A stretch of DNA of 64,000 nt from assembly GCA_035468985.1 (NCBI GenBank), contig DATISF010000028.1, forward strand, positions 38,937 to 102,936, in the 5' to 3' direction. Each line of letters opens with the position of its first letter. Within the stretch, counting starts at the first letter, position 1. The DNA is from Thermoanaerobaculia bacterium. GTDB lineage: Bacteria; Acidobacteriota; Thermoanaerobaculia; Gp7-AA8. Positions 10,720-55,102 of the stretch are shown in pieces. The position numbers and the translations under genes were made by a program. The notes under the pieces are model-generated. The model was given only the letters and a program-made list of their open reading frames with translations. It searched no databases and was not told the DNA's origin.

Positions 10720-10723
10720 GGCC

Positions 10724-18349: not shown

Positions 18350-18860
18350 ATGACCAGGAACGGACGAAGCGCGCCGGCATGACGGCTGGGGAATCCTTGC
18401 GCAGGTCGTTGCTCACGTCATCCTGAGCCGCGAAGACGGCGAAGGATCTCGAAATGGTACGCGTTTTCGCATTCTGAGATCCTTCGTCGCGCTTCGCCGA
18501 CTCAGGATGACGTGAACATCCAGGGGCGGATGGCCACGGCAACGAGGGCGGCCACGACGATCGCCGACGATCGCCGCGCTCGCGGCCGGTGCAATCATTG
18601 CCCTGCTGACCAGGAACGGACGACGCGCGCCGGCATGACGGCTGGGGAATCCTTGAGCAAGTCGTTGTTCACGTCATCCTGAGCCGCGAAGACGGCGAAG
18701 GATCTCGAAATGGCACGCGTTTTCCCATCCTGAGATCCTTCGTCGCGCTTCGCCGACTCAGGATGACGTGAACATGGCCACGGCAACGAGGGCGGCCACG
18801 ACGATCGCCAACGATCGCCGCGCTCGCGGCCGGTGCAATCATTGCCCTGCTGACATGGTC
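18350..18860. repeat. Two tandem copies of a roughly 260-bp composite unit, each containing a reverse-oriented REP-like element (18396-18516 and 18651-18773) plus about 120 bp of spacer
   Basis: The segments starting with GACCAGGAACGGACGA at 18350 and 18609 are near-identical. The REP arms are GTCATCCTGAGCCGCGAAGACGGCGAAGGATCTC and GAGATCCTTCGTCGCGCTTCGCCGACTCAGGATGAC. Confidence 0.8.
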
Positions 18861-18874
18861 GCTGCGCTGCTTCC

Positions 18875-19984
18875 TCACTTCCGAATCGCTTCAGCGATGC
18901 GGACGACCTCCGACTCCATCTCCACGCCGAACTCGCTCCGAATCTCGTAGATCCAGCCGTAGAGGAGCTCGTTGAGGATGTTGTGCACGACCGCGCCACG
19001 GTCGGCCGAGCCGGACGCGATGAGATTGTTCAGCAGCTGATCGAAATCGATGCGGCCCTCATTGACGAAATTCATCCCGCTCAGGTAGGGCAGCGTCTCC
19101 GGCGAGAGCTGCAGGACCACACGGTCCATGAAGTCGTAGACGTGGTCACCGACCTTCTGAAGAACGAGGGCGAAGATCTGCTGGAACGCGGTGTTGTAGC
19201 GCTCGACGATCCCTTCGAGCTCGTACTCGGTCGCCTCGGCCTCACGCTTCTCGACGAGGTCCGCGCCGGCCGCGTCCTGCACGAGGTTGATCACCAGGAG
19301 TCCCCACAGCGTGCGGCAGGTCGAAAAGTTCGTCAGGTAGCTTCGCTTGCAGACACTTTCGACGGTTTGGGCGCTCTCGCCGAACAGCGAGAGAACGTGC
19401 CCTTCCTCGTCGTTGAGCTCCAGCTGGTAGGCGCGCGTATCGGCGCCGGGCACCTGTTCGAGAAGGCGGTCCAGTCTTCCGATGCCGCGCATGATCAGCG
19501 ACCAGAAGTCGATCGACTCCACTCCGTCCAGAACGAGACGCTCGGTCGAAAGCGGAAGGGTGATGATCTCGTCGGGAAAGTTCGACGTGAACTCGATCGT
19601 GTAACTGCCGGTCCGGTACCGCATGGCGTTGACCACGATCGCGCTCGACTGCCTCTCCACCGCGCGGCTCAGCTCCTCCGGCTTGAGGTAGCCGAGCTCG
19701 ACGAGCAGTGCGCCGATCCGCCGCGAGACGACCAGCCGGTCCATCACGTTGTTGTATTGCTGCAGATTCAGCTCGCCCGTGCGAAGCAGCGTTTCGGCGA
19801 GTCCGACGTCCTGATCGGTGGATGACGCGAAGATGATCCGCCCTTCGTTGAAGTAGATCGTGTCGTTGCGGCCGATGGCGTCGAGCGAAAGGATCGCCGT
19901 CTCGCCGGAACGGAGGATGGAACGGAAAAGGTCGGGGACAGTCGTCTCCGCCAGCGTGCCTTGAATCGAGAGTTCTTCGGACAT
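18875..19984 (-). CDS. DUF4388-domain protein
   Basis: The N-terminus, LAETTVPDLFRSILRSGETAILSLDAIGRNDTIYFNEGRIIFASS...GLAETLLRTGELNLQQ, matches the DUF4388 pattern. The start is taken at MSEELSIQ, directly downstream of the heptamer array. Confidence 0.6.
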   Translation of the reverse strand: MSEELSIQGTLAETTVPDLFRSILRSGETAILSLDAIGRNDTIYFNEGRIIFASSTDQDVGLAETLLRTGELNLQQYNNVMDRLVVSRRIGALLVELGYLKPEELSRAVERQSSAIVVNAMRYRTGSYTIEFTSNFPDEIITLPLSTERLVLDGVESIDFWSLIMRGIGRLDRLLEQVPGADTRAYQLELNDEEGHVLSLFGESAQTVESVCKRSYLTNFSTCRTLWGLLVINLVQDAAGADLVEKREAEATEYELEGIVERYNTAFQQIFALVLQKVGDHVYDFMDRVVLQLSPETLPYLSGMNFVNEGRIDFDQLLNNLIASGSADRGAVVHNILNELLYGWIYEIRSEFGVEMESEVVRIAEAIRK

Positions 19985-19986
19985 TT

Positions 19987-20045
19987 GGGATTCGGGATTC
20001 GGGATTCGGGGTTCGGGATTCGGGATTCGGGATTCGAGATTCGAG
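19987..20045. repeat. Tandem heptanucleotide array (GGGATTC) of about 8 units, with one GGGGTTC and one GAGATTC variant, filling the whole GGDEF-DUF4388 intergenic space
   Basis: The direct read is gggattc gggattc gggattc ggggttc gggattc gggattc gggattc gagattc. Confidence 0.85.
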
Positions 20046-26282: not shown

Positions 26283-26287
26283 GGGAA

Positions 26288-26942
26288 CCTCCGCGCAAGT
26301 CGTCATCCTGAGTCGGCGAAGCGCGACGAAGGATCTCAGGATTCGAAAACACGTGCCATTTCGAGATCCTTCGCCGTCTTCGCGGCTCAGGATGACGTGA
26401 ACGACGACTTGCGCAGAGGTCCACAAGTACTGCTGTGGCACGGTAAGTACTGCTGTGGCCGCGGCGCAGCACATCGATCTTCTCTCGCATATGACGGTGT
26501 CGCACTTCGCATCGCTGTTCAGGGATGTCCCCTAGGGAAGCTCTGCACAAGTCGTTGATCACGTCATCCCGAGTCGGCGAAGCGCGACGAAGGATCTCCG
26601 GATGCGATAACGCCTGCCATTTCGAGATCCTTCGCCGTCTTCGCGGCTCAGGATGACGTGAACGACGACTTGCGCAGAGGTCCACAAGTACTGCTGTGGC
26701 CACGGCAAGTACTGCTGTGGCCGCGGCGCAGCGCATCGATCTTCCCTCGCATATGACGGCGCTGCACTTCGCATCGCTGTTCAGGGATGTCCCCTAGGGA
26801 AGCTCTGCACACGTCGTTGATCACGTCATCCTGAGTCGGCGAAGCGCGACGAAGGATCTCCGAATGCGACAACGCCTGCCATTTCGAGATCCTTCGCCGT
26901 CTTCGCGGCTCAGGATGACGTGAACAACGACTTGCGCAGAGG
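26288..26942. repeat. Tandem array of three REP-like elements (26288-26419, 26539-26680, 26802-26942) separated by two near-identical roughly 115-bp spacers
   Basis: The period is about 250-260 bp. The spacers contain the internal direct repeat AAGTACTGCTGTGGC twice. Confidence 0.85.
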
Positions 26943-26946
26943 TCGA

Positions 26947-31039: not shown

Positions 31040-34000
31040 TCACTCGGTGCGGATGATCGAGTCTCCCGTACCGTTGTCGACCGACGAGATGAACGTCAAC
31101 ACGCCGCCCGTGGCGCCGATCACTTCGACATCGACGCGAACGTTGCGCAGCGTTCCGAGCTCATCGCGCCCGGCGCCCAGGATGCTCGAGGTCAGCGGAA
31201 CGAGCAGCATCTGACCGGGAGCAAGCGAGAACTCCTTCTGGGCGGTGAGATTGGCCGTGACTTTCGTCCCTCGCCCGTCGAGGTACGACAACGTCAACCG
31301 GATTTGCGCCGGCTCGCCGAGAACTTCGACGACCCCGATGTTGTTGCGGTAAGTCGCCGGCCGCTGGGCCACGACATCGGAGCTGGTGTCATCCGTGATT
31401 CCGGCAAAGCGCTGCATCTGCCCCGGCCGCAGCGCACGTGAGACGGCAATGGTACCGACTGCGCTGCCGAACGTCGCCGCGGTCGACAGCACCAGGTTGT
31501 ACGTACGGCTCGTCACGATCAGGCTGCCGTTCGAAGGACTCACCATGATCCACCCGATCGTTCCAGGGGCGTTGAACGTGCCCGTGGCGATATCGTCGAG
31601 GAGTCTCGTCTGCCGGGGCTGGAGGGTGACGCTGCGCTCGATGGTGCCGCCGCCGTTGATGTGGTAGGTCAGCACGACGTCGTTCCGCCCGCACCGCCTC
31701 AGCGTCTGCGGAGGGCACTCGGCATTGGTGCTGGTCATCGCCACGTCGGTGCGGAAATTCGTCCCCCCTGCCCCGGCGGCGCCGCCGGCGATCGGGATGA
31801 CCACGGACTCGAACGGGTCATATCCGTACTGGCGCGTCCAATCCACGACCGACCAGTTGTCTCCGCTCGACGCGTCCACCGGAGTGGCGAAAGCATGGAA
31901 TCGCATCGTGGCGCTGTTCCCAGTCAATCGCGCCGCGACGCCGCCGGACGGAACGATGTCGTTGATCTGACGCGTCTCGTAGGCGCCGAGGTTCTCCTGC
32001 CGTGAGAAAACGACCGCGCCGTCCCCGTTCAGAATGTCGATCGTCGCGGCTCCCGCGGACCCCGCCGTCTCCTGAATGAAAAGGTTCGTGTAACTCGAAG
32101 AGTCCTTCCTCAAACCGGTCAACCAGACGGTCCCATCGAATCCCGCGGCGCGATCCGACCGGAATGCCGGAATCGAGGTCCCATACGTTCCGGCCGGATT
32201 GCTCACGTTCAGGACATTCGCGGCGATGCCAAGTTGGTCCCACTGACTCGTTCGCACCTGCAACACGCCCACCTGTCCCTCGCCGCGAAAGACGTTCTTC
32301 ACCACGTTTCCAACAAATACCGACTGCGCGACCGGCATCGAGCTGACTGCCGCAAGGAGCGGAGAGGAGGAACCTCCGATGGCGCTGTAGTACAGCTTCA
32401 GATCATCGATGGGCTTGATCCCGCTTGCATTGAGCAGGGAGAGATCGGACAGGAACAGTCCGACGCGGCCTTGAACGTTTCCTACGCCCGGCAGAAAGTA
32501 CGCAACCTGCCCTGGCGGCAACGGTGGAAACGCTGATTCACTCGGATCCACGGCCGTCGTCAAACTGATCGAGATCGTCGCGGACGTCGATCCCCCGGCG
32601 GCGGCCTTCTTGCCGAAGAGCCGGAATACGGACACCAGCGACAACGTGCCGCTCACCGTTCCGGTCAGAAGTGATGGGTCAGGGCGCTTCTTCGGATCGA
32701 CCGTGAACGTCACGATCTCGGTCTGCCCGGGCGCGACGCGCAGCAGCGCGGCCGGCGCGGAGATCCACTCCACATCAGCGCTCAGAATTCCGACGAACGA
32801 GTCGGTACCCGTATTCGTCACGGTGAAACTGCCGCTGGCTGGATCCGTCTGTGTGGTCACGAGATCAATCCGGCGGGTGGACAAGCTCAATCGCGCTCCG
32901 ACGGAGGACGATGACGCGGAAAGAAGCCGGACCGCGACCGACACCTTTCCCGCCGCTCCGGCATCAGCAATCGACTGCCCGGCGTAGGCATCCTGCGGTC
33001 TGGCCAGGCCGGCGAGCGTCACGATCTGCGACGCACCGGGGGCAAGAGTGAAGGACAAGGGTGACTGAACGAAGAAGTCTCCGACCTGACTCAATGTGAC
33101 GTTCGCCGGGGCGCCACCGATGTTCGCGATCCGATACGACGATGTGCCGCCGGCGGCGTCCGGCTCCTGAGTCAGGGTCTCGGGCAGAACGATCGCCGCG
33201 ATCTCCGCCGGACTGGCCTCCGCTGTGCTCGTCGAGAACGTCACCTCGGCCGACGGGTCGCTGAAGAGCGTGTTCGCCTGCAGGCTGTTTGCGAACGTCA
33301 CCGCTTTCGCCACCGTGAAGTATTGCGTCGCCGGACGCAGGCCCGACACCAGAACGCTCGTCGGGTCTTTCGATGGCGTCATGGCCAGCGGCACATAGGG
33401 CCCGCCACGAGAAGTGCTGACGCTGACCTGCACGCCGCCGGGACCGGCCGTATTCACCAGCCGATCCCACGTGACAGACGCGGCGAAGGCAGACGATCCC
33501 GTAACGGCCAACCCCGTCGGCGGCAGAGTCTGACTTTCCAACCCACCGGGATTGAGCGCCTTCACAAGACTCGCAACCGCGGGATCGCTGGCCCGAAGCA
33601 TGTTGTTGTCGACCCGCAGGAAACTCAGGAACGGCGCGTCCGCAAGCTCGCCGGGGATCTCACCGGTGAGCGCATTGCTCGATACGTCCAGCAGAATCAT
33701 GAAGGGAGGGCGACTGAGCTGCGGCGGAATCGATCCCGTCAGCCGATTGCTGTCGAGGAACAGCGAGAACAGATTCGGCAAATCGCCCAGCGCGGGCGGA
33801 ATCTGTCCGGTGAAGTCGTTCCCGGAAGCGGAGAATCCCCCGAGATTCGGAAAACGGGTCAGATCCGGCAGCGGTCCGGACAGACGGTTCCAGTCGCAGA
33901 AAATCAGCGACAACGTCTTCGACAAATTCGCGGGAAACTGACCGCTGAACTGATTGCCCGTAATGGAGAGCGTCTCGAGCTTCGTGAGCCGCTCGAGCGC

Positions 34001-34912
34001 CGGAAGGGGACCCGAGAATCGGTTGAATGCGATCCAGAGCTGGTGCAAGGACGTCATTCCCAGGATCTCATCCGGAATCGTGTCGTACTCATTGCCGGTC
34101 AGATCGAGCTCCTGCAGCGTGGGGATCTGTGCGAACTCCCGGGGAATCGTTCCCGCGAAATGATTGAAGTCGAATCCGATGTGTTTCAGCGGCAGCCGAG
34201 CCAGCTGATCGAACGGGATCGGTCCACTCAGATTGCAGCTGCCAAGGTTGAGGTACGTGAGGTTCGAGAGCGCGCCGATGTTCGCCAGGACATGCCTTCC
34301 CTCGAATCGACCGCTGCCACCAATGCCGAGCCATTGCAGATCTCGCAAGACCGTGAAATCGGGCAGCCTCCCCTCGAAGTGGTTGAACCTGATGTCAAGG
34401 AGCTGCAGGTTCGTCATGCCCAGCAGCGATTCGGGCAGAGAACCGCCCATGTCATTGAAGGAGAGGTCGACGTACCAGAGCGACTTGAGATTGCCGAGCT
34501 CCGCGGGCAGCGGACCGGTCAGCGCGTTGGACGTTGCATCGAGGATGGCCAGTTGAGTCAGACGGCCGATCTCCACCGGTATGTCGCCGTCGAGATCGTT
34601 GTACCGGACGGTGATCTCCGTCAGGCTGGTCAGGTTTCCGATCTGCGGAGGAAGCGAGCCGCGCAAACGATTGCTCTGAAGCCGGAGCGCAACGACGTTT
34701 GTTCGTGCGCTGTCGCAAACAACGCCTCTCCATGTGCACTCGGTTCCGGGATCGCCGAGCCAGCCGGTGTGATTACTCCAGGATGCCCCGTTGGTGCTGT
34801 TGTAAAGCGCGATCAGTGCGTCGCGCTGTACTGGCGGAACCTGCGCACAGAGAACGACGGGGCCAAGTAGCAACGCCACAGCGACACCCGAAACCAGGCG
34901 ACTGCTGCGCAT
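31040..34912 (-). CDS. Large secreted protein (1290 aa) with N-terminal plant-type leucine-rich repeats, followed by beta-rich (Ig/fibronectin-like) repeats
   Basis: A signal peptide is followed by an LRRNT-like cap (W..V.C) and at least 14 LxxLxxLxLxxNxL(T/S)GxIP repeats. The remaining roughly 800 aa are a low-complexity beta-rich region. Confidence 0.7.
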   Translation of the reverse strand: MRSSRLVSGVAVALLLGPVVLCAQVPPVQRDALIALYNSTNGASWSNHTGWLGDPGTECTWRGVVCDSARTNVVALRLQSNRLRGSLPPQIGNLTSLTEITVRYNDLDGDIPVEIGRLTQLAILDATSNALTGPLPAELGNLKSLWYVDLSFNDMGGSLPESLLGMTNLQLLDIRFNHFEGRLPDFTVLRDLQWLGIGGSGRFEGRHVLANIGALSNLTYLNLGSCNLSGPIPFDQLARLPLKHIGFDFNHFAGTIPREFAQIPTLQELDLTGNEYDTIPDEILGMTSLHQLWIAFNRFSGPLPALERLTKLETLSITGNQFSGQFPANLSKTLSLIFCDWNRLSGPLPDLTRFPNLGGFSASGNDFTGQIPPALGDLPNLFSLFLDSNRLTGSIPPQLSRPPFMILLDVSSNALTGEIPGELADAPFLSFLRVDNNMLRASDPAVASLVKALNPGGLESQTLPPTGLAVTGSSAFAASVTWDRLVNTAGPGGVQVSVSTSRGGPYVPLAMTPSKDPTSVLVSGLRPATQYFTVAKAVTFANSLQANTLFSDPSAEVTFSTSTAEASPAEIAAIVLPETLTQEPDAAGGTSSYRIANIGGAPANVTLSQVGDFFVQSPLSFTLAPGASQIVTLAGLARPQDAYAGQSIADAGAAGKVSVAVRLLSASSSSVGARLSLSTRRIDLVTTQTDPASGSFTVTNTGTDSFVGILSADVEWISAPAALLRVAPGQTEIVTFTVDPKKRPDPSLLTGTVSGTLSLVSVFRLFGKKAAAGGSTSATISISLTTAVDPSESAFPPLPPGQVAYFLPGVGNVQGRVGLFLSDLSLLNASGIKPIDDLKLYYSAIGGSSSPLLAAVSSMPVAQSVFVGNVVKNVFRGEGQVGVLQVRTSQWDQLGIAANVLNVSNPAGTYGTSIPAFRSDRAAGFDGTVWLTGLRKDSSSYTNLFIQETAGSAGAATIDILNGDGAVVFSRQENLGAYETRQINDIVPSGGVAARLTGNSATMRFHAFATPVDASSGDNWSVVDWTRQYGYDPFESVVIPIAGGAAGAGGTNFRTDVAMTSTNAECPPQTLRRCGRNDVVLTYHINGGGTIERSVTLQPRQTRLLDDIATGTFNAPGTIGWIMVSPSNGSLIVTSRTYNLVLSTAATFGSAVGTIAVSRALRPGQMQRFAGITDDTSSDVVAQRPATYRNNIGVVEVLGEPAQIRLTLSYLDGRGTKVTANLTAQKEFSLAPGQMLLVPLTSSILGAGRDELGTLRNVRVDVEVIGATGGVLTFISSVDNGTGDSIIRTE

Positions 34913-34961
34913 GCGGACCTCCGCTTTGGTGCGCTCACGCTATCGCCGCCGGGGAGGTGAG

Positions 34962-36095
34962 TCAATGCTTCTTCCACTCGTCCATCATGGCGACGAAATC
35001 AGGGAATAGATAGAACGAGTCGTGCGGTCCCGGCGCCGCCTCGGGGTGGTACTGCACGGCGAAGAGCGGCTCGCTGCGATGGCGGAAGCCCTCCAGCGTC
35101 TGGTCGTTCAGGTTGATGTGCGTGAACTCGACGTCCCGCTCCCGCAGCGAATCGGGATCGACCGAGAATCCGTGATTCTGTGCGGTGATCTCCACACGTC
35201 CGCTGCGCAGATCCTTCACCGGATGATTGCCGCCCCGGTGCCCGAATTTCAACTTGTACGTCTTCCCTCCAAGGGCCAGGCCGAGGAGTTGATGGCCGAG
35301 GCAGATGCCGAAGATGGGAACTTTGCCGATGAGCTGGCGGATGTTCTCCTGCGCGTACGTCACGGGCTCGGGATCGCCGGGGCCGTTCGAGAGGAGAACC
35401 CCGTCGAACTTCTGCGCGAGGATCTCGCTGGCCGGAGTCTTCGCCGGAAACACCGTCACGTCGCAGCGGTGGCCGGTGAGCTGGCGGAGGATGTCGCGCT
35501 TCACGCCGTAGTCATAGACCGCGACACGGTGTGGAGCGGCGGTCCCGGCCGCCGAAGGGCGGGCGGGAAGGCCTGCCGCTCCGCCTTCGTCGAAGGTGTA
35601 GGCTTCATTTGTCGTCACGCGATGGACGAGGTCGAGGCCGCTCATCGACGGCGCGCGACGCACTTCCGCGAGGAGATCGTCGACGGCGCGCGGCTCCGTC
35701 GTGATCATCCCGCGCATCGCCCCCTCATTCCGGATCTTGCGCGTGAGCGCACGCGTGTCGATCCCGGCGATCGCCGAGATGCGGTGATGCGTGAAGTAAT
35801 CGCCGAGCGACATCTCCGCATGCGCGCTCGACGGCTCGGCGACGGCATCGCGCACGACGAACCCGGCCACCTGCGGCGCGGCGCTCTGCGCCACGGCACG
35901 CTCCACACCGTAGTTGCCGATATGGGGGTACGTCATCGTCACGATCTGGAATCGGTACGACGGGTCGGTCGAGATCTCCTGGTATCCGGTCAGCGAGGTG
36001 TTGAAGACGACTTCGCCGATCGACGTCTCGGTCGATCCGAACGATTCGCCTTCGTAGACGGTTCCGTCCTCGAGGATGAGGCGTGCGGCGGGCAT
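34962..36095 (-). CDS. carA: Carbamoyl-phosphate synthase small (glutaminase) subunit
   Basis: The N-terminus, LEDGTVYEGESFG, is conserved. The class-I GATase triad includes PIFGICLGHQLL and HPE. The start is trimmed to MPAARLIL at 36095. Confidence 0.9.
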   Translation of the reverse strand: MPAARLILEDGTVYEGESFGSTETSIGEVVFNTSLTGYQEISTDPSYRFQIVTMTYPHIGNYGVERAVAQSAAPQVAGFVVRDAVAEPSSAHAEMSLGDYFTHHRISAIAGIDTRALTRKIRNEGAMRGMITTEPRAVDDLLAEVRRAPSMSGLDLVHRVTTNEAYTFDEGGAAGLPARPSAAGTAAPHRVAVYDYGVKRDILRQLTGHRCDVTVFPAKTPASEILAQKFDGVLLSNGPGDPEPVTYAQENIRQLIGKVPIFGICLGHQLLGLALGGKTYKLKFGHRGGNHPVKDLRSGRVEITAQNHGFSVDPDSLRERDVEFTHINLNDQTLEGFRHRSEPLFAVQYHPEAAPGPHDSFYLFPDFVAMMDEWKKH

Positions 36096-36224
36096 CGACG
36101 CATTATGCACACGTACCCCTCGCCCCGCACAGCGCGGAGAGGGTGGCGCGGAGCGCCGGGTGAGGGGCGCCCCCCCCTCATCCGGCCTTCGGCGCATCGG
36201 GGCGCAATCGAGAACGGTGCGAGA

Positions 36225-36405
36225 GCGTCGTCGTTGACGGACGACAGGACGGACGTGTCGCCGGCAATCCTTGCCGCCTGGTTGAAGGCGTTGATCGACT
36301 CCGGCTCGACGAAGATCTCGGCCTGCCCGAGCTTCACGCGGTAGTTCAGCGACAGATCGAGCGCGTTCTGGTTGTCCCAGCGACAGGTCCAGGTGAACTT
36401 CATCA
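36225..36405 (-). pseudogene. Remnant of the C-terminal about 60 residues of a TonB-dependent receptor paralog
   Basis: The translation WDNQNALDLSLNYRVKLGQAEIFVEPESINAFNQAARIAGDTSVLSSVNDDALAPF aligns to the C-terminus of the intact receptor at 37076-37400 (WDTVNALDLSINYKLRVGRAELYLEPELINAFNQAAKIAGSTTVFSAVNDSHLEPF). Identity is about 65%. The fragment has no upstream receptor body. Confidence 0.55.
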
Positions 36406-36647
36406 AGTGGCTCCTTTCGTAATCGATTGAAGGGAAGCAATCACTCGACCACTCGAACGCGCCAGTTGAATCACTGGCGAAATTCAATCGAGCCGAATGC
36501 GCACCTTGCTCGATTCAACCGTTTGCGGATGCGCGCAGCGGTTTTTGAATCGAAAAAAACGGTCGTTCACCACGCTGGCATAAACGTTTTGAGGAACGCG
36601 CGTGCCTGTGACAAAAACGCAATGGGAGCCGAAGGCAAAATCGCCCC

Positions 36648-36860
36648 ATGCGCAACGAAGCCCTCGATACTCTCGGCGTGTGTGAGTGGTGCGAACGGAA
36701 CGCGGTCGTCGTTCACCTGAGCTTCGCGATGTGCGGCGTGTGCTTCGCCGATGCGAGCCTCGTGGCCCGCGAGCAGGTTGGTTTCGACGATTGGATCGGC
36801 GGTCTGCCGAAAGAGGTCGCGGAACGGATCCTCCGCGCAATGCTCACGCGGGGCCGCTGA
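36648..36860 (+). CDS. Small hypothetical protein with two CxxC pairs (zinc-ribbon-like)
   Basis: The 70-aa ORF has CEWC...CGVC. It lies after an AT-rich pocket, and its stop abuts a REP-like element. The RBS is weak. Confidence 0.3.
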   Translation: MRNEALDTLGVCEWCERNAVVVHLSFAMCGVCFADASLVAREQVGFDDWIGGLPKEVAERILRAMLTRGR

Positions 36861-36868
36861 CTAAGGAA

Positions 36869-37010
36869 CCTCCGCGCAAGTCGTCGTTCACGTCATCCTG
36901 AACCGCGAAGACGGCGAAGGATCTCGAAATCGCGGCGTCTTGCGCATCCTGAGATCCTTCGTCGCGGTTCGCCGACTCAGGATGACGACTTGTGCAGAGG
37001 TTCTGTCTCA
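36869..37010 (-). repeat. REP/MITE-like palindromic element in reverse orientation
   Basis: The sequence is CCTCCGCGCAAGTCGTCGTTCACGTCATCCTGAACCGCGAAGACGGCGAAGGATCTC...GAGATCCTTCGTCGCGGTTCGCCGACTCAGGATGACGACTTGTGCAGAGG. Confidence 0.85.
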
Positions 37011-37075
37011 GGAACCTCATCACTCCCGGCGAGGATGCTCCGGCCGGATCCACCGGCCGGAGCGTGACGAGGGAG

Positions 37076-40003
37076 TTAGAACCTCGCTCCGAAGGACACG
37101 CGATACGTGCGCATCAGCGCGTAGTCGGAAGCGTTACGGGCCTGGCCGAATGTCGAACTGAACCGATAGTTCTTTCCAAGGACCGGCTTCTCCGTAAAGG
37201 GATTGAAGGGCTCGAGATGGCTGTCGTTGACCGCCGAGAAGACTGTCGTGCTGCCGGCGATCTTCGCAGCCTGGTTGAATGCGTTGATCAGCTCGGGCTC
37301 CAGGTACAGCTCCGCGCGGCCGACTCTCAGCTTGTAGTTGATCGAGAGGTCGAGCGCGTTGACCGTGTCCCAGCGGTGATTGCCGCGCTGGCCGTCCAGG
37401 TAATAGTTCACCGACGACGGGGCACCGGCGTAGTAGCTGGTCACGCTCTCAGGGAGGTACTGGCTGGGATCGATCTGCAGAAGAGCCGAGTACGGCGTAC
37501 CCGTGTCGATGCGCTCCAGGGCGCTGAACACGAAGTTGCCGACGTGGGTGGGCACGGCCCACGTCGCCCATGCGCGGACCTTGTTCGTCTCATCCGACGG
37601 CAGGAAGCCGACCGGGTTGTTCTCCGCGAAGGCCTTGTACTCCGGATACTGGAAGATGGTCTCGGGGACCGGGCCGACGCCGGGCGTCTCCGCCGTGACG
37701 TTGCCGCGGGTCTTGGCGTAGGTGTAGTTGGCGCCGAACTGCACGTGCTGAGTGAACGGATAGGCGGCCTGGATGCTCGCCGCACGGTAGGTGCGCTCGA
37801 GGTTCTGGTCGCTGGTGAAAATCTGCTGGATGTCGTTCGGATTGCCGAACTGGTCCACGACCTGGCCCGTGGACTGGTCGACGCGGTTCGCGTAGAAATT
37901 GCCCCAGTTGCGGTTGATCAGGTCGAGGCGGACGAAGCCCTTTCCGATCTGCGAGCCGGCGCCCAACGTGACCTCGTTGACGTCCGGTGATTTCAACGAT
38001 CCGAGGATCTTGGTGTTGAGGCCCGGGATGACGCCGAAGAACGGCTGCACGCCGTTCACGCCACCCTGAGACTGGAACCAGTTGTACATGGTCTGGAACG
38101 CCGTCACCGTGTCGACGCCGCAGTTCGCGGTGCCCGGCGTGCAGCCCGGCGCGTTGATGGCCGGTCCGCGATACCGATAGAAGATGTAGGCCGGGTTGCC
38201 GGCGCCGGTCGCGCCGTTGCCGACCGTCTCGGCGATCTTCGCCGCATACTTGCTGTAGCTGGCGTTGAAACGCAGGCGGCCGTTGCCAAGCACGTCATAC
38301 GTGGCGCCGAGCCGCGGCTCGAACGTGGAGTCGTTCGCGCGCGTGAAGCCCGACGCGTCCTTGCCGTTGTTCTTGTCGTAGCGGAGTCCGAGCGTGAAGC
38401 CCCAGTGCGTGTTCAGGTCCCACTTGTCGTTCACGTAAAGCGAACGGGTGACGAAGTTCGAGCCTTTGGTCAGCTCGAAGATCGGGAACCACACGATGAT
38501 GTCGCGGTTCGGACTGATGACCGGGTGGAACGTGTCATTCGGACCGGAAACCGGCGTCTGCTCGCCGAACGTGTACACGCCGAAGTTGGAGCCCGACTGA
38601 TAGTTGTTCGAAATGTGCTGCTCGGCCCAATCCTGGTAGCCGGCGCTGACGCTGTGTGTGCCGAGGCTCTTGGACGCGAGGTAGTAGGACAGCTTCAGGT
38701 CCCAGGTCTTGTTGTTGCGCTGTTCCGATCCGCAGTCGGAGCAGAACACCGGCGCGCCGAAGAACTGACCTTCGTTGAGGTCGAGACCCCAGCTGCCGTG
38801 CGCGAAGTCGGCGGTCGGGCCGCCGCCGTCGACGAACGCGAAGAACTTCTTCGACCAGTTCGCCTCGACGAGAACGCTGTCGGTGAGGATGCCGCTGTAG
38901 TGCGCGGTCTTGAAGCTGTTCGGGGTCTCGCGCGACGGATCGATGCTGGAGAACTCGTAGCAGCCGAACAAGCAGACCCCCGTCTGCGGGTTCTTGATGT
39001 CGAGGTACGACACGACCACGCTGTGCTTCGGCGTGATCTGGCCGGTCAGCTTGCCTTCATAGCGCGTGTTCTTCGAAACGGCCTGGAACTTGACGTTCGA
39101 GTTCGTCAGGAAGTTGTCGGTGCCGATCTTTGCCGAACGGGCCGCGCCGAAGAACCACAGGCGGTCGCGCACGATGCGTCCGCCGAGGGTTGCTTCATAC
39201 ACGCTGTCGATGTGATCGGTCGGGTCGGGCTGATGCGGATCGGGAGTCTTGGTCGTCCAGTTGTTATTGGTCAGGGAGTCGCGGATCGAGCCGCTGAACT
39301 CGTTGCCGCCCGACTTCGTGATCGCGTTGACCACGCCGCCGGTGAAGCGGCCGTACTCGGCCGAGATCGCGCCGGTGAGCACCGTCTGCTCCTGGATCGC
39401 GTCCTCGATGAACAGATTGTGGATCTGGCTCCGGAGGTTTTCGTTGATGACCGCGCCGTTGACCATGTACAGATTCTCGTGAGCCGGTGCGCCGGAGATC
39501 ACCAGCTGCCCGGGTGTGGGCGTGTTGGTGTTCACGTTCGGCGCGATCGACGCCTGCGCCTGGAACGTGCGTCCCACCGGAAGGTCCTCGACGAGCTCCT
39601 GCTTCACGTTCGTCTGGATCTCCTGCGTTTCCAGCACGGCCGGAGCGCTGGCGGTGACGGTGATCGCCTCGGCCACCGCCGAGAGCTTCAACTCCGCGTC
39701 CGCGCGCCCGGTCTGGCCGAGGCCGACCACCGCGTGGCGCGTCACGGGTTGCATGCTCTCCATTTCGAATTTGACCGTGAAGTCGCCCGGCGGAACCGCG
39801 CCGAAAATGAAATTGCCGTTCACGTCGGTGTAGGCCGTACGCGTCCCCTGCATCGCCGGCGAGGAGATGGTGACGGTGACACCGGGGAGAGCGCTCCCCT
39901 CCGTGACGACGTGGCCGGTGAGACTCGACGTGGTCTGTGCCCACGCCGCTGTGCTGCATAAGAGCAGCAGGACTGCTAAACAGGTTCGACTGAACTTCAT
40001 CAA
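37076..40003 (-). CDS. TonB-dependent outer-membrane receptor with an N-terminal carboxypeptidase-regulatory-like domain
   Basis: A signal peptide is followed by a CarbopepD_reg pattern (GHVVTEGSALPGVTVTIS...TDVNGNFIFGAVPPGDF). A plug region follows, then the long beta-barrel. The C-terminus ends in an aromatic residue (...VSFGARF). Confidence 0.8.
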   Translation of the reverse strand: MMKFSRTCLAVLLLLCSTAAWAQTTSSLTGHVVTEGSALPGVTVTISSPAMQGTRTAYTDVNGNFIFGAVPPGDFTVKFEMESMQPVTRHAVVGLGQTGRADAELKLSAVAEAITVTASAPAVLETQEIQTNVKQELVEDLPVGRTFQAQASIAPNVNTNTPTPGQLVISGAPAHENLYMVNGAVINENLRSQIHNLFIEDAIQEQTVLTGAISAEYGRFTGGVVNAITKSGGNEFSGSIRDSLTNNNWTTKTPDPHQPDPTDHIDSVYEATLGGRIVRDRLWFFGAARSAKIGTDNFLTNSNVKFQAVSKNTRYEGKLTGQITPKHSVVVSYLDIKNPQTGVCLFGCYEFSSIDPSRETPNSFKTAHYSGILTDSVLVEANWSKKFFAFVDGGGPTADFAHGSWGLDLNEGQFFGAPVFCSDCGSEQRNNKTWDLKLSYYLASKSLGTHSVSAGYQDWAEQHISNNYQSGSNFGVYTFGEQTPVSGPNDTFHPVISPNRDIIVWFPIFELTKGSNFVTRSLYVNDKWDLNTHWGFTLGLRYDKNNGKDASGFTRANDSTFEPRLGATYDVLGNGRLRFNASYSKYAAKIAETVGNGATGAGNPAYIFYRYRGPAINAPGCTPGTANCGVDTVTAFQTMYNWFQSQGGVNGVQPFFGVIPGLNTKILGSLKSPDVNEVTLGAGSQIGKGFVRLDLINRNWGNFYANRVDQSTGQVVDQFGNPNDIQQIFTSDQNLERTYRAASIQAAYPFTQHVQFGANYTYAKTRGNVTAETPGVGPVPETIFQYPEYKAFAENNPVGFLPSDETNKVRAWATWAVPTHVGNFVFSALERIDTGTPYSALLQIDPSQYLPESVTSYYAGAPSSVNYYLDGQRGNHRWDTVNALDLSINYKLRVGRAELYLEPELINAFNQAAKIAGSTTVFSAVNDSHLEPFNPFTEKPVLGKNYRFSSTFGQARNASDYALMRTYRVSFGARF

Positions 40004-40233
40004 TGTGCTTCCTTTCGTTATCGATCTGTGAACACAACTGCCGTTGGGCCGCTCTGCAGCCCGAGCAATGGCCCGACCAAGTCGGCACGTCGCTAAGTCA
40101 TTGATGGATCTAGATCGCGCAGAAGCAGCGTGTTACGCGATTCAAGCGCGGGGAGGCGCTTTGGGCGGATTTCCGAATCGCGTCATGACCGTTCACAGTT
40201 TCGACAAGACCGTTTGCCGGAAGCGCGGAGCTT

Positions 40234-41454
40234 TCACTCGTGGCGCAGCGCCTCGATCGGATCGAGACGCGCAGCGCGTGACGCGGGAATGATCGTCGCC
40301 AGGAACGAGACCATCACCGAGAACGCGGCGATGACCGTCAGGTCCGCCGCCCGGGTCACGAACGGAATCGACGACACGAAATACACCTCGGCGATCTCCG
40401 GCGGGAAGGAGACGATGTGGAAACGCGTGATGATCCAGCAGACCACGACCCCGAGAAACAGCCCCGCGCCCGTCCCCGCGAAGCCCACCATCGTCCCGTA
40501 CCAGAGAAAGATGGTGCGCACCATCCTCCGCTCCGCTCCCATCGACGTCAGGATGCCGATCTCCTTCCGCTTCTCGTGAACGGTCATGATCAGTGTGGAG
40601 ACGATGTTGAACGTCGATACGAAGACGATCAGGCCGATGACGATGAAGAGAACGAGCTGCTGAATGCGGAGCATCGAGAACAGCTGGCGGTTCATCTCCC
40701 GCCAGTCGCTCACCGCGAAGCGCTGATCGGTGCGTCGGCCGATCTCGCGCACCACTCGGGAAAGAGATGCGTCATCGCGGAGCTTCACCTCCACGAGGTT
40801 CGCCGCGCTCGTCACGCCGATCAAATCCTGCGCCTCGCCAAGATCGAGAAACAGCCAGCGTGCGTCGTATTCGTAGAAACCGGTATCGAAGACGTTCGTC
40901 ACGACAAACGATGCCGTGCGCGGCAGGAATGTGCCGGAACGCTCGGTCGGAACCGTCACGCTGATCGAGACACCCGGGCTGATGCCGAGCTTCGCCGCGA
41001 GATACTTGCCGACCGCGACGCCGCGCTCCCCTTCCGGAGTCACGAATCCGCTCTTGCCGATGACCTTCGCCAGCATCGGAGACGTACGCGCGCGCGACGG
41101 CTCGATGCCTTTGAGCATCACTTCGGATCCCGTCGTATTCCGTTCCGTCGTCACCACAGCCTGCTGGAACACGACCGGTGACGCTTCCGCGACTCCCGGC
41201 GTACCGCGAATCACCGCGAGCAGCGGCGCCGGATTCGTGATCGGACCGGCCACGGAATAGACGAACACCTCCGCGTTGCCGCCGAGGAGCTTGCGCTGGA
41301 GGTCGCGGCGATAGCCGGTCATGAGGGCCATCGAGATCACCAGGGCCATCACGCCGATGATCAAGCCGAACACCGACACCGCCCCGACCGCCGACACCAG
41401 CGCGTCCGTGGGACGGCGGAGGTAGCGCCAGGCGATTCGCTGTGCTAACGACAC
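40234..41454 (-). CDS. LolC/LolE-type (FtsX-family, MacB-like) ABC transporter permease
   Basis: The N-terminus, AQRIAWRYLRRP, is followed by TM1, a large periplasmic domain and a C-terminal FtsX 3-TM bundle. The start is taken at the GTG at 41454. No ATPase gene is adjacent. Confidence 0.7.
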   Translation of the reverse strand: MSLAQRIAWRYLRRPTDALVSAVGAVSVFGLIIGVMALVISMALMTGYRRDLQRKLLGGNAEVFVYSVAGPITNPAPLLAVIRGTPGVAEASPVVFQQAVVTTERNTTGSEVMLKGIEPSRARTSPMLAKVIGKSGFVTPEGERGVAVGKYLAAKLGISPGVSISVTVPTERSGTFLPRTASFVVTNVFDTGFYEYDARWLFLDLGEAQDLIGVTSAANLVEVKLRDDASLSRVVREIGRRTDQRFAVSDWREMNRQLFSMLRIQQLVLFIVIGLIVFVSTFNIVSTLIMTVHEKRKEIGILTSMGAERRMVRTIFLWYGTMVGFAGTGAGLFLGVVVCWIITRFHIVSFPPEIAEVYFVSSIPFVTRAADLTVIAAFSVMVSFLATIIPASRAARLDPIEALRHE

Positions 41455-41546
41455 CGGTCCTCGCTCCTCGCTCCTCGGTCCTCGGTTGGTTCCGAGGAGC
41501 ACTCCCAGACCCACACGGCCGGTCGGCTCTCCTGAACTCTCTCCGC

Positions 41547-53744: not shown

Positions 53745-55102
53745 TGCCTTCTCCGGCGGCGCTTCCTGACGGGAGGGCCGCTTTCCTCCTGTGCCTTCCG
53801 CACGCGCTGCGCGAAGGAGTTCCACTGGCGGAATTGCTCGACATACTTGCCGGACGAGAGCGCGTACAGCTCGAGCAGCGCCAGCGCGTCATGGAACGGC
53901 TCGCGATAGATGAAGCGAAACAAAGCGCGGCGATCGGAGGGCGGCTCGAGCAGGCGCCAGAACGTCTCCAGGGCCTGTTCGATCTGATGGCGCGCGCCGG
54001 CCGGCAGCGCCATGCGCGCGCACACCGGCTGCACGAGATCGCGGATGAACAGCAGGACCTCGCCGATGCGCATTCGGCCCTGTCGGCGCTGCTCTTCCCG
54101 TTCGAGCTCTTCGACGATCCACGGCAGTAGCAGAACCGACAGCAGCACCGGATCGGAGACCTTGCGTCCCGATTGCACGGTGCGGTCGAGCACCTCGAGC
54201 ATTTTCCAGAAGTACGGCGTGCGCTCACCCTCGATCGCGCGATAGACCTCGGGCAGAAGAGGCTCGAGCAGGCGCGTCTCCACGAGCAGCCGTAATGCGC
54301 CGCGCGACCATCCCCGGCGCAGCAACTCCAGAATCTCTTCGGAAACGCGAGGAGGAGAAGCCTTCAGGATGTCCGCGCGGTGGCGGAGGATACCCTCGTA
54401 CGTCGCGGGCTCGATCGCGAATCGCAGCCGCGAGGCGAATTCGATTGCCCGCATCATCCGCACCGGATCTTCGCGGAAGCGAACGTCGGGATCGCCGATC
54501 ACGCGAACCAGACCCTCGTGGATGTCCTCGAGACCGCCCACGTAGTCGAGCACGGAGAAATCGGCGATGTTGTAGAAGAGGCCGTTCATCGTGAAGTCGC
54601 GTCGACGAGCGTCCTGCAGCGGCGTGCCGAACGTGTTGTCGTCGGTGACGAGGATGTCGTCCGTGTCCTCAGCGCTGCCGCGCTCCGGCTCGCGCCGGAA
54701 CGTCGCCACCTCGACGATCATGTCCTGAAAGATCACGTGCACGAGGCGAAAGCGCCGGCCGATGATCCGGCTGTTGCGGAACAGACGGCGGATCTCGGCA
54801 GGATGCGCATCCGTGGCGATGTCGAAATCCTTCGGCGTCCTCGCCATCAGCAGATCGCGCACGCTTCCGCCGCACAGGTAGGCTCGATATCCGCTGCGGT
54901 GCAGGCGGTAGAGGACCTTCAGAACGTTTTCAGGGATCTGCCGGCGCGAGATCGGGTGATCGCTCCGGTCGACGACGACCGCGTCTTCCTCGGGCCTCGG
55001 GCTTCGGGCCTCGGGCCTCGGTTCGCCTTCGTCGGATTCGTCGTGGACGGCTCCGAGGCCCGAGGCCTGAGGCCCGAGGCCTGCTTTTTCACTCGGACTC
55101 AT
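53741..55102 (-). CDS. pcnB: Poly(A) polymerase I
   Basis: RRQIPENVLKVLYRLHRSGYRAYLCGGSVRDLL...PKDFDIAT...IGRRFRLVHVIF...EVATFR matches the PcnB pattern. The first about 30 codons contain a long inverted heptamer repeat. Confidence 0.75.
   Translation of the reverse strand: MSPSEKAGLGPQASGLGAVHDESDEGEPRPEARSPRPEEDAVVVDRSDHPISRRQIPENVLKVLYRLHRSGYRAYLCGGSVRDLLMARTPKDFDIATDAHPAEIRRLFRNSRIIGRRFRLVHVIFQDMIVEVATFRREPERGSAEDTDDILVTDDNTFGTPLQDARRRDFTMNGLFYNIADFSVLDYVGGLEDIHEGLVRVIGDPDVRFREDPVRMMRAIEFASRLRFAIEPATYEGILRHRADILKASPPRVSEEILELLRRGWSRGALRLLVETRLLEPLLPEVYRAIEGERTPYFWKMLEVLDRTVQSGRKVSDPVLLSVLLLPWIVEELEREEQRRQGRMRIGEVLLFIRDLVQPVCARMALPAGARHQIEQALETFWRLLEPPSDRRALFRFIYREPFHDALALLELYALSSGKYVEQFRQWNSFAQRVRKAQEESGPPVRKRRRRRH
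54987..55082. repeat. Long inverted repeat of heptamers, (CCTCGGG)4-5 ... (CCCGAGG)4, inside the 5' coding region of pcnB
   Basis: The left arm is CCTCGGGCCTCGGGCTTCGGGCCTCGGGCCTCGG, and the right arm is CCGAGGCCCGAGGCCTGAGGCCCGAGGCCTG, its near-exact reverse complement. The predicted stem is about 30 bp with a roughly 30-nt loop. Confidence 0.7.

Follow-up and report, generated by a model that had tools for sequence, protein, structure and literature searches.

Organization of the Locus

All positions given here are coordinates of the window, i.e., the complete stretch of 64,000 nt that was analysed, and the region studied (36096–36860) lies upstream of carA, which encodes the small subunit of carbamoyl-phosphate synthase. 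This carA is 74–80% identical to the carA of metagenome-assembled genomes (MAGs) of Thermoanaerobaculia, and an exact-protein look-up found it not on record. On the other side of the region stands an intact TonB-dependent receptor (TBDR) of the CarboxypepD_reg type, whose homologues in Thermoanaerobaculia are 59–70% identical and whose C-terminus ends in FGARF. This gene is followed by a lolC/E-type permease gene, referred to as lolE below. Between the intact TBDR and carA lie a small orphan ORF, a pocket of lower GC content, and a remnant of a second TBDR, of which carA is the downstream gene (Table 1).

Table 1. Features of the lolE–carA interval and its flanks in window coordinates (strand: +, -, or. 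for none assigned).
Feature	Position	Strand	Basis and details
carA, carbamoyl-phosphate synthase small subunit, 377 aa	34962–36095	-	Pfam CPSase_sm_chain 7.7e-51, GATase 8.2e-53; ATG at 36095
Non-homologous read-through tail of remnant ORF, codons 66–137	35990–36208	-	Codon score -0.655 bits/codon (non-coding-like)
CATAAT, -10-like box, inferred leaderless carA promoter	36102–36107	-	6 nt upstream of ATG, no Shine–Dalgarno sequence
CTCCGCGCT, right-hand copy of the 9-bp direct repeat bracketing the 4.1-kb insert	36131–36139	-	Left-hand copy at 40222–40230
GC-rich imperfect hairpin between end of TBDR homology and carA promoter region	36146–36195	.	Inverted repeat I1, 22-nt arms, 82% complementary
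TBDR C-terminal barrel remnant, 58 codons equivalent to residues 877–934 of the intact neighbour	36209–36382	-	BLASTP, family HMM
5' end of dead TBDR copy: ATCGAT-ACGAAAGGA (Shine–Dalgarno), TTG, ATG, and codons 1–7 (MKFTWTC)	36383–36427	-	Match to 39980–40025
TTGAATCGA-type motif cluster	36423–36553	.	36423–36431 (-, 1 mismatch), 36483–36491 (+, 1 mismatch), 36510–36518 (-, exact), 36545–36553 (+, exact); 7-mer at 36466–36472
U2, core of the AT-rich pocket, putative paralogous copy of U1 (40064–40180)	36436–36552	-	Local alignment
Orphan 70-aa ORF, CxxC-N13-CxxC	36648–36860	+	C12xxC15, C29xxC32; 'hypothetical protein' in the NCBI MAG record
Palindromic interspersed repeat of ~135 nt (MITE/REP-like), between intact TBDR and mini-ORF	36866–37003	.	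Copies elsewhere, fold
Perfect 11-bp GC hairpin directly after the intact TBDR stop, terminator-like	37037–37063	-	Inverted repeat I15, RNA fold
Intact CarboxypepD_reg-type TBDR, 974/975 aa	37076–40003	-	Pfam CarboxypepD_reg, Plug, OMP_b-brl_4
U1, upstream region of intact TBDR, left edge of insert	40004–40233	-	Contains 9-bp repeat copy at 40222–40230
lolC/E-type lipoprotein-release permease	40234–41514	-	NCBIfam TIGR02212 lolCE 2.6e-90

The 135-nt repeat has at least nine further copies in the window (86–94% identity) and one on a second contig of the same assembly, L083 (89.5% identity). The RNA fold of 36858–37072, which covers this repeat and the hairpin at the 3' end of the TBDR, reaches -128 kcal/mol (z = -9.9). 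The imperfect hairpin close to carA has no further copy in the window, and a role as an insulating terminator was rejected, since it lacks a U-tract and its fold is unremarkable (z = -0.67). Searches of 36430–37075 with blastx, tblastx, and blastn for further remnants, i.e., a sulfatase partner, the lolE 3' end, or more TBDR, returned the palindromic repeat only.

The sequence of the window at this locus is no assembly artefact. The NCBI MAG contig (141 kb), the ENA megahit contig (72 kb), and a Logan contig agree at 100% across 36000–36932 and beyond, the ENA contig being identical to the window over 12,213 nt and the independent Logan contig over 933 nt. It is, thus, barely credible that a mis-assembly of the metagenome bin joined a scrap of TBDR to carA. 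The source is indeed a MAG, and an assembly-breaking repeat (the 135-nt element) lies close by, within which the Logan contig terminates. However, the same sequence stands in all three assemblies, and the remnant is 29% diverged from the neighbouring TBDR and is, therefore, no collapsed copy of it.

A Lineage-Specific Insert

In four relatives from Thermoanaerobaculia compared by tblastn synteny (L003, L004, L006, and L008), lolE ends 28–160 nt before carA and nothing lies between them. Therefore, the 4.1 kb separating both genes in the window (40233–36096) represent a lineage-specific insert, with the qualification that the relatives compared have carA sequences at most 80% identical to that of the window. 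At the position of the remnant, none of these relatives has an intact small gene. In a metagenome scan with the TBDR, none of the seven loci found had the lolE–TBDR–carA arrangement, and a tandem TBDR pair is present in the relative L085.

The insert is bracketed by two copies of the 9-bp direct repeat CTCCGCGCT. The probability of a 9-mer being shared by chance between the edge windows is about 1–2%, for a repeat that was found post hoc, and it may tentatively be regarded as a target-site duplication or a microhomology. Terminal inverted repeats are not evident at the insert edges, and 36096–40233 holds no transposase-like ORF. In L003, the lolE stop codon is followed at the corresponding position by CTCCGC.

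The Receptor Remnant

The remnant lies in a minus-strand ORF that runs from an ATG at 36403 to a stop at 35990 (137 aa). Residues 8–65 of this ORF align without gaps to residues 877–934 of the intact TBDR, with 37 of 58 positions identical (64%), 86% positives, and an E-value of 3e-24 in BLASTP. The first-pass annotation, which had reported about 60 TBDR-like codons upstream of carA at 65% identity, was thus right in substance, and the limits of the homology are corrected to those of Table 1. The resemblance holds at the DNA level, with 71–72% identity over 171 nt and a local score of 110 compared with 19.4 +/- 2.3 in shuffles (z = 39). A family C-terminal HMM, built from 118 other family members with the intact neighbour excluded, also matches the remnant (E 2.8e-20) at profile positions 20–78 of 119. 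The last 41 family positions are missing, including the terminal Phe of the GxRF end. The barrel core has a GC3 of 0.91 and a codon score of 0.66 bits/codon, both gene-like, and the 65 homologous codons contain neither internal stops nor frameshifts; thus, decay is deduced from truncation alone.

Downstream of the barrel piece, the ORF crosses the imperfect hairpin and the promoter of carA and then covers 105 nt of this gene in another reading frame. An extension of the TBDR homology into this tail was considered, as BLAST alignments with P0014, P0054, and others reached residues 88–97, and was rejected, the family HMM aligning none of it. No Pfam domain was detected in the 137-aa ORF, and the 65-aa fragment, used as query in a word-indexed search for homologues, yielded no candidate. 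A search of 1.84 billion representatives gave 17 matches, at most 56% identical. In the closest of these, about 41 residues remain after the aligned part, which is the normal length of a TBDR C-terminal tail, and no small-protein family with the architecture of the remnant was found among the representatives.

The piece of barrel is preceded by only seven residues (MKFTWTC), without a signal peptide or a plug (PF07715). These few residues belong to a second stretch of homology, since 36383–36427 matches the 5' end of the intact TBDR with 83% identity over 46 nt (E 2.4e-6, window-wide blastn), and a 16-mer pattern of the TBDR start was matched twice in the search, compared with 0.03 matches expected. 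The start of the dead copy is joined in frame to the equivalent of codon 877 at 36382/36383. Moreover, its N-terminus groups with that of the neighbour (MKFSRTC) rather than with those of orthologues (MKLNRFW). This is relevant to the origin of the remnant: in BLAST against 120 TBDR homologues, the remnant is 62% identical to some orthologues and 64% to the neighbour, and, because these values are nearly equal, the C-terminal piece alone is no proof of duplication in situ.

As for function, the remnant shows barrel homology, while it has neither signal peptide nor plug, and most of the 22-strand barrel is missing together with its final aromatic residue. In this state, it can form no receptor. 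The remnant is homologous to the receptor family yet truncated, and relatives hold no orthologous short gene; judged from its sequence, it is most likely a non-functional pseudogene.

Nevertheless, an undamaged ribosome-binding site and ATG and the in-frame junction would permit translation into 137 aa, and the ORF (65–137 aa) could in principle be a functional small gene or an upstream ORF whose translation affects carA expression. The intact Shine–Dalgarno sequence (GGAG), the start codon, the in-frame fusion free of internal stops, and the gene-like codon usage over 65 codons are compatible with this idea, as are the course of the ORF across the carA promoter and start and its selection by a gene caller, which took place only on the short Logan contig, where carA is cut off. 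However, an in-frame junction arises by chance in one case in three, and a recently truncated gene would show gene-like codon usage anyway, while the score of the tail (-0.655 bits/codon) resembles that of non-coding DNA. The product would have neither a signal peptide nor the strand that closes the barrel, the 1.84 billion representatives include no homologue of the same architecture, the relatives have no room for such an ORF, and carA has its own conserved promoter. A functional small gene is, thus, improbable, and a pseudogene remains the preferred reading of the ORF.

The AT-Rich Pocket as a Probable Copy of the Receptor Upstream Region

The AT-rich stretch that had been noticed at 36440–36640 is real, although only moderately AT-rich: the GC content is 0.51–0.52 over 36400–36647, compared with 0.60–0.71 around it, and this is the minimum of 34000–39000. 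The upstream regions of related TBDRs are alike in composition (GC 0.45–0.60). The core of the pocket (U2) aligns with U1 over ~117 nt with a score of 19, compared with 9.7 +/- 1.3 in shuffles (maximum 16 of 1000; z about 7) and with a maximum of 15 over 1000 random window segments. The blocks of U1 and U2 are collinear in a MAFFT alignment. Without gaps, identity is only 35%, so the homology, which rests on a single pairwise comparison, needs small indels. On this alignment, pocket and U1 are homologous, and the former would have been inherited with the TBDR leader. Thus, the remnant keeps a ribbon of the former gene extending from ~117 nt of upstream DNA through the ribosome-binding site, the ATG, and seven codons, and it would therefore be a decayed, internally deleted, and 3'-truncated duplicate of control region and gene. 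A deletion within a TBDR paralogue, proposed by the first-pass annotation, is supported by these features.

Shared blocks between the pocket and the upstream regions of orthologous TBDRs (ATTCGGAAAA, TTGAATTC, and GACTTAGC) appeared collinear by eye and were discarded as unsupported. An nhmmer profile of five orthologue upstream regions matched neither U1 nor U2, and pairwise scores lay in the range of shuffles (z <=3.1).

A cluster of TTGAATC/GATTCAA-type motifs had also been claimed for the pocket, and it exceeds chance by far. Allowing at most one mismatch, TTGAATCGA occurs four times in 36423–36553, compared with 0.04 occurrences expected, a density reached in 0 of 5000 local shuffles; TTGAAT/ATTCAA is likewise seen four times for 0.09 expected. 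The motifs form the arms of inverted repeats and came with the TBDR leader. The middle arm (36508–36518) is complementary to both 36545–36553 and 36483–36493, so that mutually exclusive hairpins are predicted (inverted repeat I20), with modest structural z values of -2.7 (minus strand) and -1.6. The equivalent hairpin of U1 differs by one compensatory and one wobble change, a covariation drawn from two sequences, and a copy of TTGAATCG is found upstream of the intact TBDR as well. The sense (minus) strand of the pocket contains no U-tract terminator, and a scan for sigma-70 promoters found none on either strand. There are four sites with TTGAATCGA arms in the dead copy and one in the live copy; a control region in decay would not be expected to preserve its palindromes better than the live one. 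TTGAATCGA as a family-wide TBDR operator was rejected, the cluster being missing upstream of 15 related TBDRs.

The Orphan CxxC Open Reading Frame

The 70-aa CxxC...CxxC ORF of the first-pass annotation is present. Its place is the spacer that separates both TBDR copies, where it and the former TBDR start diverge from a shared gap of 244 nt. It carries the two CxxC knuckles of zinc-ribbon small proteins. Among 5.8 billion protein clusters it matches only itself, and no Pfam, NCBIfam, or PHROG family was assigned, the best match being S14 type Z with E 0.036, compared with a cut-off of 77 bits. Its codon score is 0.27 bits/codon, a value at the 8th percentile for true genes that 2.7% of spurious ORFs attain, and its GC content follows the order GC3>GC1>GC2. 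AF2 run without an alignment returned an all-helix guess (pLDDT 48) and no confident zinc-ribbon fold. The ORF is, thus, a putative gene, an orphan of uncertain reality with borderline codon usage.

The pocket and this ORF might together form a live regulatory module for TBDR expression that survived the death of the adjacent TBDR copy, either through a 70-aa zinc-ribbon protein binding the TTGAATCGA inverted repeats or through a leader-RNA switch with alternative hairpins. Even with both variants taken jointly, this is unlikely. The far-from-random motif cluster, the arm that pairs with either of two others, the equivalent hairpin and TTGAATCG copy upstream of the intact TBDR, and the codon-position periodicity, CxxC pairs, and divergent placement of the ORF are what could be expected of such a module. 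On the other hand, the ORF has no homologue, family match, or confident fold and a low codon score, neither strand shows a sigma-70-like promoter, related TBDRs lack the motif cluster, no Rfam family is matched, the structural z values are modest, and the covariation comes from two sequences. Similarly unlikely is the idea that the TTGAATCGA array and the divergent orphan ORF constitute a lineage-specific control module for the TBDR pair, i.e., a new Zn-ribbon DNA-binding regulator with its operators or a new alternative-hairpin leader RNA, which would have outlived its receptor gene and share elements with the live leader.

The carA Promoter

A TATAAT, TACGAT, or TAGACT box is found 7–14 nt before the carA ATG in 8/8 relatives, whose intergenic regions are otherwise unalignable, and, with the CATAAT of the window included, a -10-like box lies 6–14 nt before this ATG across nine sequences. 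A -10 box (TANNNT) ~10 nt upstream of the start codon is the signature of leaderless genes (Zheng et al. 2011, PMC3160421). The carA of the window and those of the eight relatives resemble such genes in having a TATAAT-like box near the start and no Shine–Dalgarno sequence, the window differing in its CATAAT box. Probably, therefore, carA is transcribed as a leaderless mRNA, and it would be independent of the remnant region.

This bears on the interpretation of TGAAT-N10-ATTCA at 36467–36486, which had been described as ARG-box-like, with the wrong spacing. The element exists, whereas its reading as an operator finds no support. In enterobacteria, carAB is under arginine and pyrimidine control, so that the pocket, with this element and several TGAAT/ATTCA half-sites, might be thought to act as a carA operator of the ArgR or PyrR type. 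ARG boxes, the operators of ArgR/AhrC, are 18-bp palindromes (TNTGAATWWWWATTCANW) that are usually paired and overlap the promoter, as in E. coli carAB P2. The pocket shares with them the half-site letters and a position upstream of carA. In contrast, its spacing is N10 or N14–26 instead of N4, and its motifs precede the conserved -10 box of carA by 330–450 nt and stand in DNA apparently inherited from a TBDR upstream region. Neither the N4 core nor an overlap with the promoter is found in the pocket: TGAAT-N4-ATTCA with at most two mismatches is absent from 36000–36900, and the whole window contains fewer matches than chance (6, compared with 11.8 expected). Rfam cmscan of 35900–40400, including the PyrR site and with E-values up to 5, gave five sub-threshold chance matches and no riboswitch or attenuator in the pocket. 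Furthermore, the entire lolE–carA gap of relatives is 28–160 nt long and has no such motifs. A carA operator in the pocket is largely refuted and very improbable.

Origin and Significance of the Locus

With a probability of roughly 80%, 36096–36860 consists mostly of a decayed second copy of the neighbouring TBDR together with an orphan ORF, and contains no carA regulatory element. The following course of events would account for the locus. A unit comprising the upstream control region and the TBDR gene would once have been duplicated in tandem, both copies lying inside the 4.1-kb block between lolE and carA in this lineage only. The two copies would then have diverged under selection on both, to ~64% protein and ~71% DNA identity, in keeping with the codon usage of the remnant, which is still gene-like. 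Subsequently, the copy proximal to carA may have lost codons ~8–876 (about 870 codons) through an in-frame internal deletion, as well as its last ~41 codons with any sequence that followed on the 3' side. Left over, in minus-strand order, would be the control region with the inverted TTGAATCGA arms, followed by the ribosome-binding site, ATG, and seven codons, the 58 barrel codons, and a non-coding read-through. Right before its ATG, carA would keep its own -10 box and not depend on the remnant region.

The locus is an ordinary gene-decay relic, and the understanding of any system is unchanged by it. It is, at the same time, a clean small example of receptor paralogue turnover in Acidobacteriota, in which a tandem pair would have been inserted between two housekeeping genes and one member then gutted by in-frame deletion, with the control region and start kept. 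It also calls for caution, since AT-rich DNA full of motifs in front of a biosynthetic gene may be inherited baggage and no operator of that gene. A compact, probably leaderless promoter would free carA from upstream insertions. The MAG record leaves 36096–36647 empty, and a TBDR pseudogene feature is warranted there.

Comparison with Known Systems

The 36866–37003 element resembles REP/MITE-like palindromic repeats in being multi-copy, intergenic, and folded into a single long hairpin; it differs in occurring also in tandem arrays with a period of 262 nt.

The CarboxypepD_reg TBDRs (PF13620/PF13715, PF07715 Plug, and a PF25183/PF00593 barrel) are expanded in Acidobacteriota. The remnant is like them in its 58 codons of C-terminal barrel, and its start region copies that of the intact neighbour. 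It differs in retaining just seven residues of the signal peptide and ~6% of the barrel and in lacking the CarboxypepD_reg domain, the plug, and the terminal Phe.

Finally, the remnant compares well with bacterial pseudogenes that arise by deletion in tandem paralogues, since it is truncated in comparison with all members of the family, stands beside an intact paralogue, is missing in relatives, and has a tail that reads into non-coding DNA. As a pseudogene, it has been left unannotated in the MAG record, without a pseudogene flag. It departs from this class in that the complete translation-initiation region has been kept and the internal deletion is in frame, and, therefore, the remnant still resembles an ORF that could be started.

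Probable Remnant of a Duplicated Receptor Gene

The region between the intact TonB-dependent receptor (TBDR) gene and carA is a real but ordinary relic, most likely a pseudogene that lacks annotation, derives from a tandem duplicate of the TBDR gene, and is accompanied by its old control region. The window comes from a metagenome-assembled genome of Thermoanaerobaculia (Acidobacteriota), and the sequence of the region is 100% identical in two other assemblies from the same sample and, thus, not a chimera. Every large gene around the remnant is carried by the minus strand (see the table).

A minus-strand ORF of 137 residues runs from an ATG at 36403 to 35990, and a gapless alignment matches its residues 8-65 (36382-36209) with residues 877-934 of the TBDR (37/58 identical, 50/58 positives, E 3e-24). 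The DNA is 71-72% identical over ~171 nt, with a local score of 110 versus 19.4 ± 2.3 for dinucleotide shuffles, which bears out the TBDR C-terminal remnant reported here by the first-pass annotation. When the C-terminal 125 residues of 118 other family members were made into a profile HMM, with the neighbour left out, the resulting model matched the fragment with an E of 2.8e-20 at profile positions 20-78 of 119 only; homology reaching into the ORF tail, as seen by BLAST with a few homologues, finds no support in this profile. Over the 58 residues, the remnant shows nearly the same identity to the neighbour (64%) as to the best orthologues (62%). The closest protein among 1.84 billion representatives reaches at most 56%, and none has the remnant architecture.

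The 65 homologous codons are gene-like (GC3 0.91; codon score 0.66 bits/codon versus 0.57 ± 0.19 in real genes), and the 72-codon ORF tail is not (-0.655 bits/codon). Differences between the remnant and its neighbour fall 15/13/23 at codon positions 1/2/3, and replacements are mostly conservative. The two copies probably diverged while both were functional, and the deletions in the remnant would be recent compared with this split. A Pfam search found no domain in the remnant; signal peptide, plug, and closing strand are all missing from it and, judging from these missing parts, it could not act as a receptor.

Coordinates of features in the window and in related loci
Feature	Coordinates	Strand
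lolC/E-type permease	41514-40234	-
Intact TBDR, 975 codons, CarboxypepD_reg + Plug + barrel domains	40003-37076	-
Intact TBDR initiation block, ATCGATAACGAAAGGAAGCACATTGATGAAGTTCAGTCGAACCTGT	40025-39980	-
carA	36095-34962	-
Large LRR protein	34912-31040	-
Remnant (5' to 3'), 1: old control region		-
Remnant, 2: Shine-Dalgarno sequence + ATG + 7 codons		-
Remnant initiation block, ATCGATTACGAAAGGAGCCAC-TTGATGAAGTTCACCTGGACCTGT	36427-36383	-
Remnant, 3: in-frame junction, equivalent of codons 8-876 skipped	36383/36382	-
Remnant, 4: 58 barrel codons		-
Remnant, 5: end of homology, 41 codons before family C-terminus	~36208	-
Remnant, 6: GC-rich hairpin	36195-36146	-
Remnant, 7: carA promoter		-
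Palindromic repeat copies	36866-37003; 1072-1207; 1327-1453; 18399-18512; 18657-18768; 26285-26420; 26537-26681; 26824-26943; 63831-63929	
Palindromic repeat, partial copies	16945-16978; 54784-54844	
Palindromic repeat, second contig of same assembly (L083)	10583-10724	
TBDR-sulfatase loci	L083 5597-10596; L084 8001-13092; L085 3912-14250; L093/L094 1501-6060; L095 1501-5399; L096 218-4663	

Retained Initiation and Control Regions

The first seven codons of the ORF and the preceding 24 nt copy the translation-initiation region of the intact TBDR and lie directly upstream of the 58 homologous codons. Over 46 nt, the two initiation blocks are 83% identical (blastn against the whole window, E 2.4e-6), and the 16-mer ATCGATWACGAAAGGA is restricted to them (0.03 expected). 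The N-termini read MKFTWTC in the remnant and MKFSRTC in the neighbour versus MKLNRFW in orthologues of other genomes, which places the 5' end of the remnant with the neighbour in particular. The deletion or recombination between TBDR paralogues proposed earlier is right and can be sharpened, since the 5' end and upstream region of the copy were also kept.

Further upstream, and with the initiation block excluded, 36436-36552 aligns with 40064-40180 (score 19 versus 9.7 ± 1.3; 1000 shuffles reached at most 16, and 1000 random segments of the window at most 15), which argues that the AT-rich pocket is a paralogous copy of the upstream region of the live TBDR. The pocket itself is present as described, with a GC content of 0.51-0.52 versus 0.60-0.71 around it. 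GC is likewise lowered (0.45-0.60) upstream of 15 related TBDRs, and this composition is the normal look of a TBDR control region in this group. The live leader (40026-40063, minus strand) has an additional stretch of ~30 nt (GGGCTGCAGAGCGGCCCAACGGCAGTTGTG) that the leader of the dead copy does not have; this stretch adjoins the shared Shine-Dalgarno block on its upstream side and can in part form a short GGGCC/GGCCC hairpin.

The repeated TTGAATC/GATTCAA-type motifs and the TGAAT-N10-ATTCA element (36467-36486) also stand, TTGAATCGA occurring four times with ≤1 mismatch versus 0.04 expected (0/5000 shuffles). These motifs are inverted-repeat arms: in the minus-strand RNA, arm 36518-36508 pairs with 36553-36545 (9 bp) or 36493-36483 (10/11 bp), and the upstream region of the intact TBDR holds one TTGAATCG copy as well as a corresponding hairpin that differs by one compensatory and one wobble change. 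Fold z-scores of the motif region are -2.7 (minus strand) and -1.6 (plus strand). Compared in these two sequences, motifs and hairpins would tentatively fit either an RNA switch in the leader or an operator bound by a protein, in both cases taken over from the control region of the TBDR. The sense strand has no U-tract terminator, a sigma-70-like promoter is absent from both strands, and no TTGAATCGA-type cluster lies upstream of the 15 related TBDRs. Blocks seemingly common to the pocket and orthologue upstream regions failed statistical tests. On the plus strand, two TTGAATCGA arms enclose a loop that contains a terminator-like hairpin followed by TTTTT (36519-36545); this hairpin lies ~100 nt before the mini-ORF discussed below, at a place where no plus-strand gene ends.

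A Lineage-Specific Insert and Its Repeats

Comparison was made with carA-anchored loci from species-representative genomes of eight Thermoanaerobaculia relatives (69-80% carA identity). In four (L003, L004, L006, and L008), 28-160 nt separate the lolE end from the carA ATG on the same strand, while two (L009 and L010) have the order carA-lolE. Since none of the eight has a TBDR at this locus, the comparison indicates that the entire 4.1-kb stretch between lolE and carA (40233-36096) is an insert specific to the lineage of the window. It contains, in order, the TBDR upstream region, the TBDR, a hairpin, a palindromic repeat, the mini-ORF, the paralogous upstream region, the remnant, and a hairpin. 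Both edges carry the 9-bp direct repeat CTCCGCGCT (40222-40230 and 36131-36139), and L003 has CTCCGC after the lolE stop at the matching place. This repeat could mark a duplicated target site or a microhomology junction, a reading kept tentative because the shared 9-mer (chance ~1-2%) was found post hoc and the insert has neither a transposase nor terminal inverted repeats.

In relatives, proteins homologous to the intact TBDR (59-70% identity) are encoded at other loci, where the conserved gene order is ValRS-TsaD-epimerase-TBDR-sulfatase/TPR. A tandem TBDR pair occurs in one relative (L083-L085, L092, and L095) and, thus, tandem pairs are a normal state for this family. The homologues are always followed by 1-2 sulfatase + TPR genes and usually lie downstream of TsaD and a DUF1731 epimerase; this pairing of TBDR and sulfatase is conserved, but the window's copy has lost the sulfatase partner.

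The palindromic repeat (~135 nt) is interspersed in at least 10 copies in the 64 kb, with 86-94% mutual identity, and some copies are arranged in tandem at a period of ~255-262 nt (26301-26944: 2.5 units, 95%). Together with the adjacent TBDR 3' hairpin, one copy forms a 215-nt stretch (36858-37072) with a folding energy of -128 kcal/mol (z = -9.9). Tandem arrays of heptanucleotides also occur, namely ATTCGGG x8.7 and CCTCGGG x4.9 (19983-20043 and 54988-55021), and such arrays, in the window and in L006, lie in or near intergenic regions.

The CxxC Mini-ORF

The 70-aa ORF with two CxxC pairs noted by the first-pass annotation is indeed present (36648-36860), with GC3 (0.79) > GC1 (0.69) > GC2 (0.46). 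Several results weigh against it. Its codon score of 0.27 bits/codon lies at the 8th percentile for real windows of 70 codons, a level that 2.7% of spurious ORFs attain; its antisense frame is likewise open, and the sole candidate for a Shine-Dalgarno sequence is a weak GAAGG located ~12 nt before the ATG. No homologue beyond itself was found among 5.8 billion clusters, its only database match being its own entry ('MAG TPA: hypothetical protein VLV78_07690 [Thermoanaerobaculia bacterium]'). Pfam, NCBIfam, and PHROG returned no family, the best hit being an insignificant resemblance to the S14 type-Z zinc knuckle (E 0.036), and AlphaFold without an alignment gave a pLDDT of 48. The mini-ORF is about as likely as not to be a real gene, nothing connects it to carA, and it is best described as an orphan ORF of doubtful status beside the TBDR relic. 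A live regulatory module made up of the repeat array and the zinc-ribbon ORF is only a slim possibility and is the sole route to something new here.

Transcription of carA

The pocket had also been considered as a carA operator owing to its ARG-box-like motifs. However, with ≤2 mismatches allowed, the ARG-box core TGAAT-N4-ATTCA does not occur in the region and is rarer than expected across the window, and an Rfam search (E up to 5) found neither a PyrR site nor any other family. These tests do not support the operator idea; the interpretation is wrong, and carA does not use the pocket. In 8/8 relatives, carA has a TATAAT, TACGAT, or TAGACT box 7-14 nt before the ATG, set in otherwise unalignable intergenic DNA without a Shine-Dalgarno sequence; in the window, CATAAT (36102-36107) is followed by 6 nt and the ATG, again without a Shine-Dalgarno sequence. 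CAACCGA repeats lie about 90-130 nt upstream of carA in L006. The published signature of leaderless bacterial genes is a TANNNT box ~10 nt upstream of the start codon (PMC3160421), and the boxes found here, 6-14 nt before the ATG, suggest a leaderless carA mRNA across the class.
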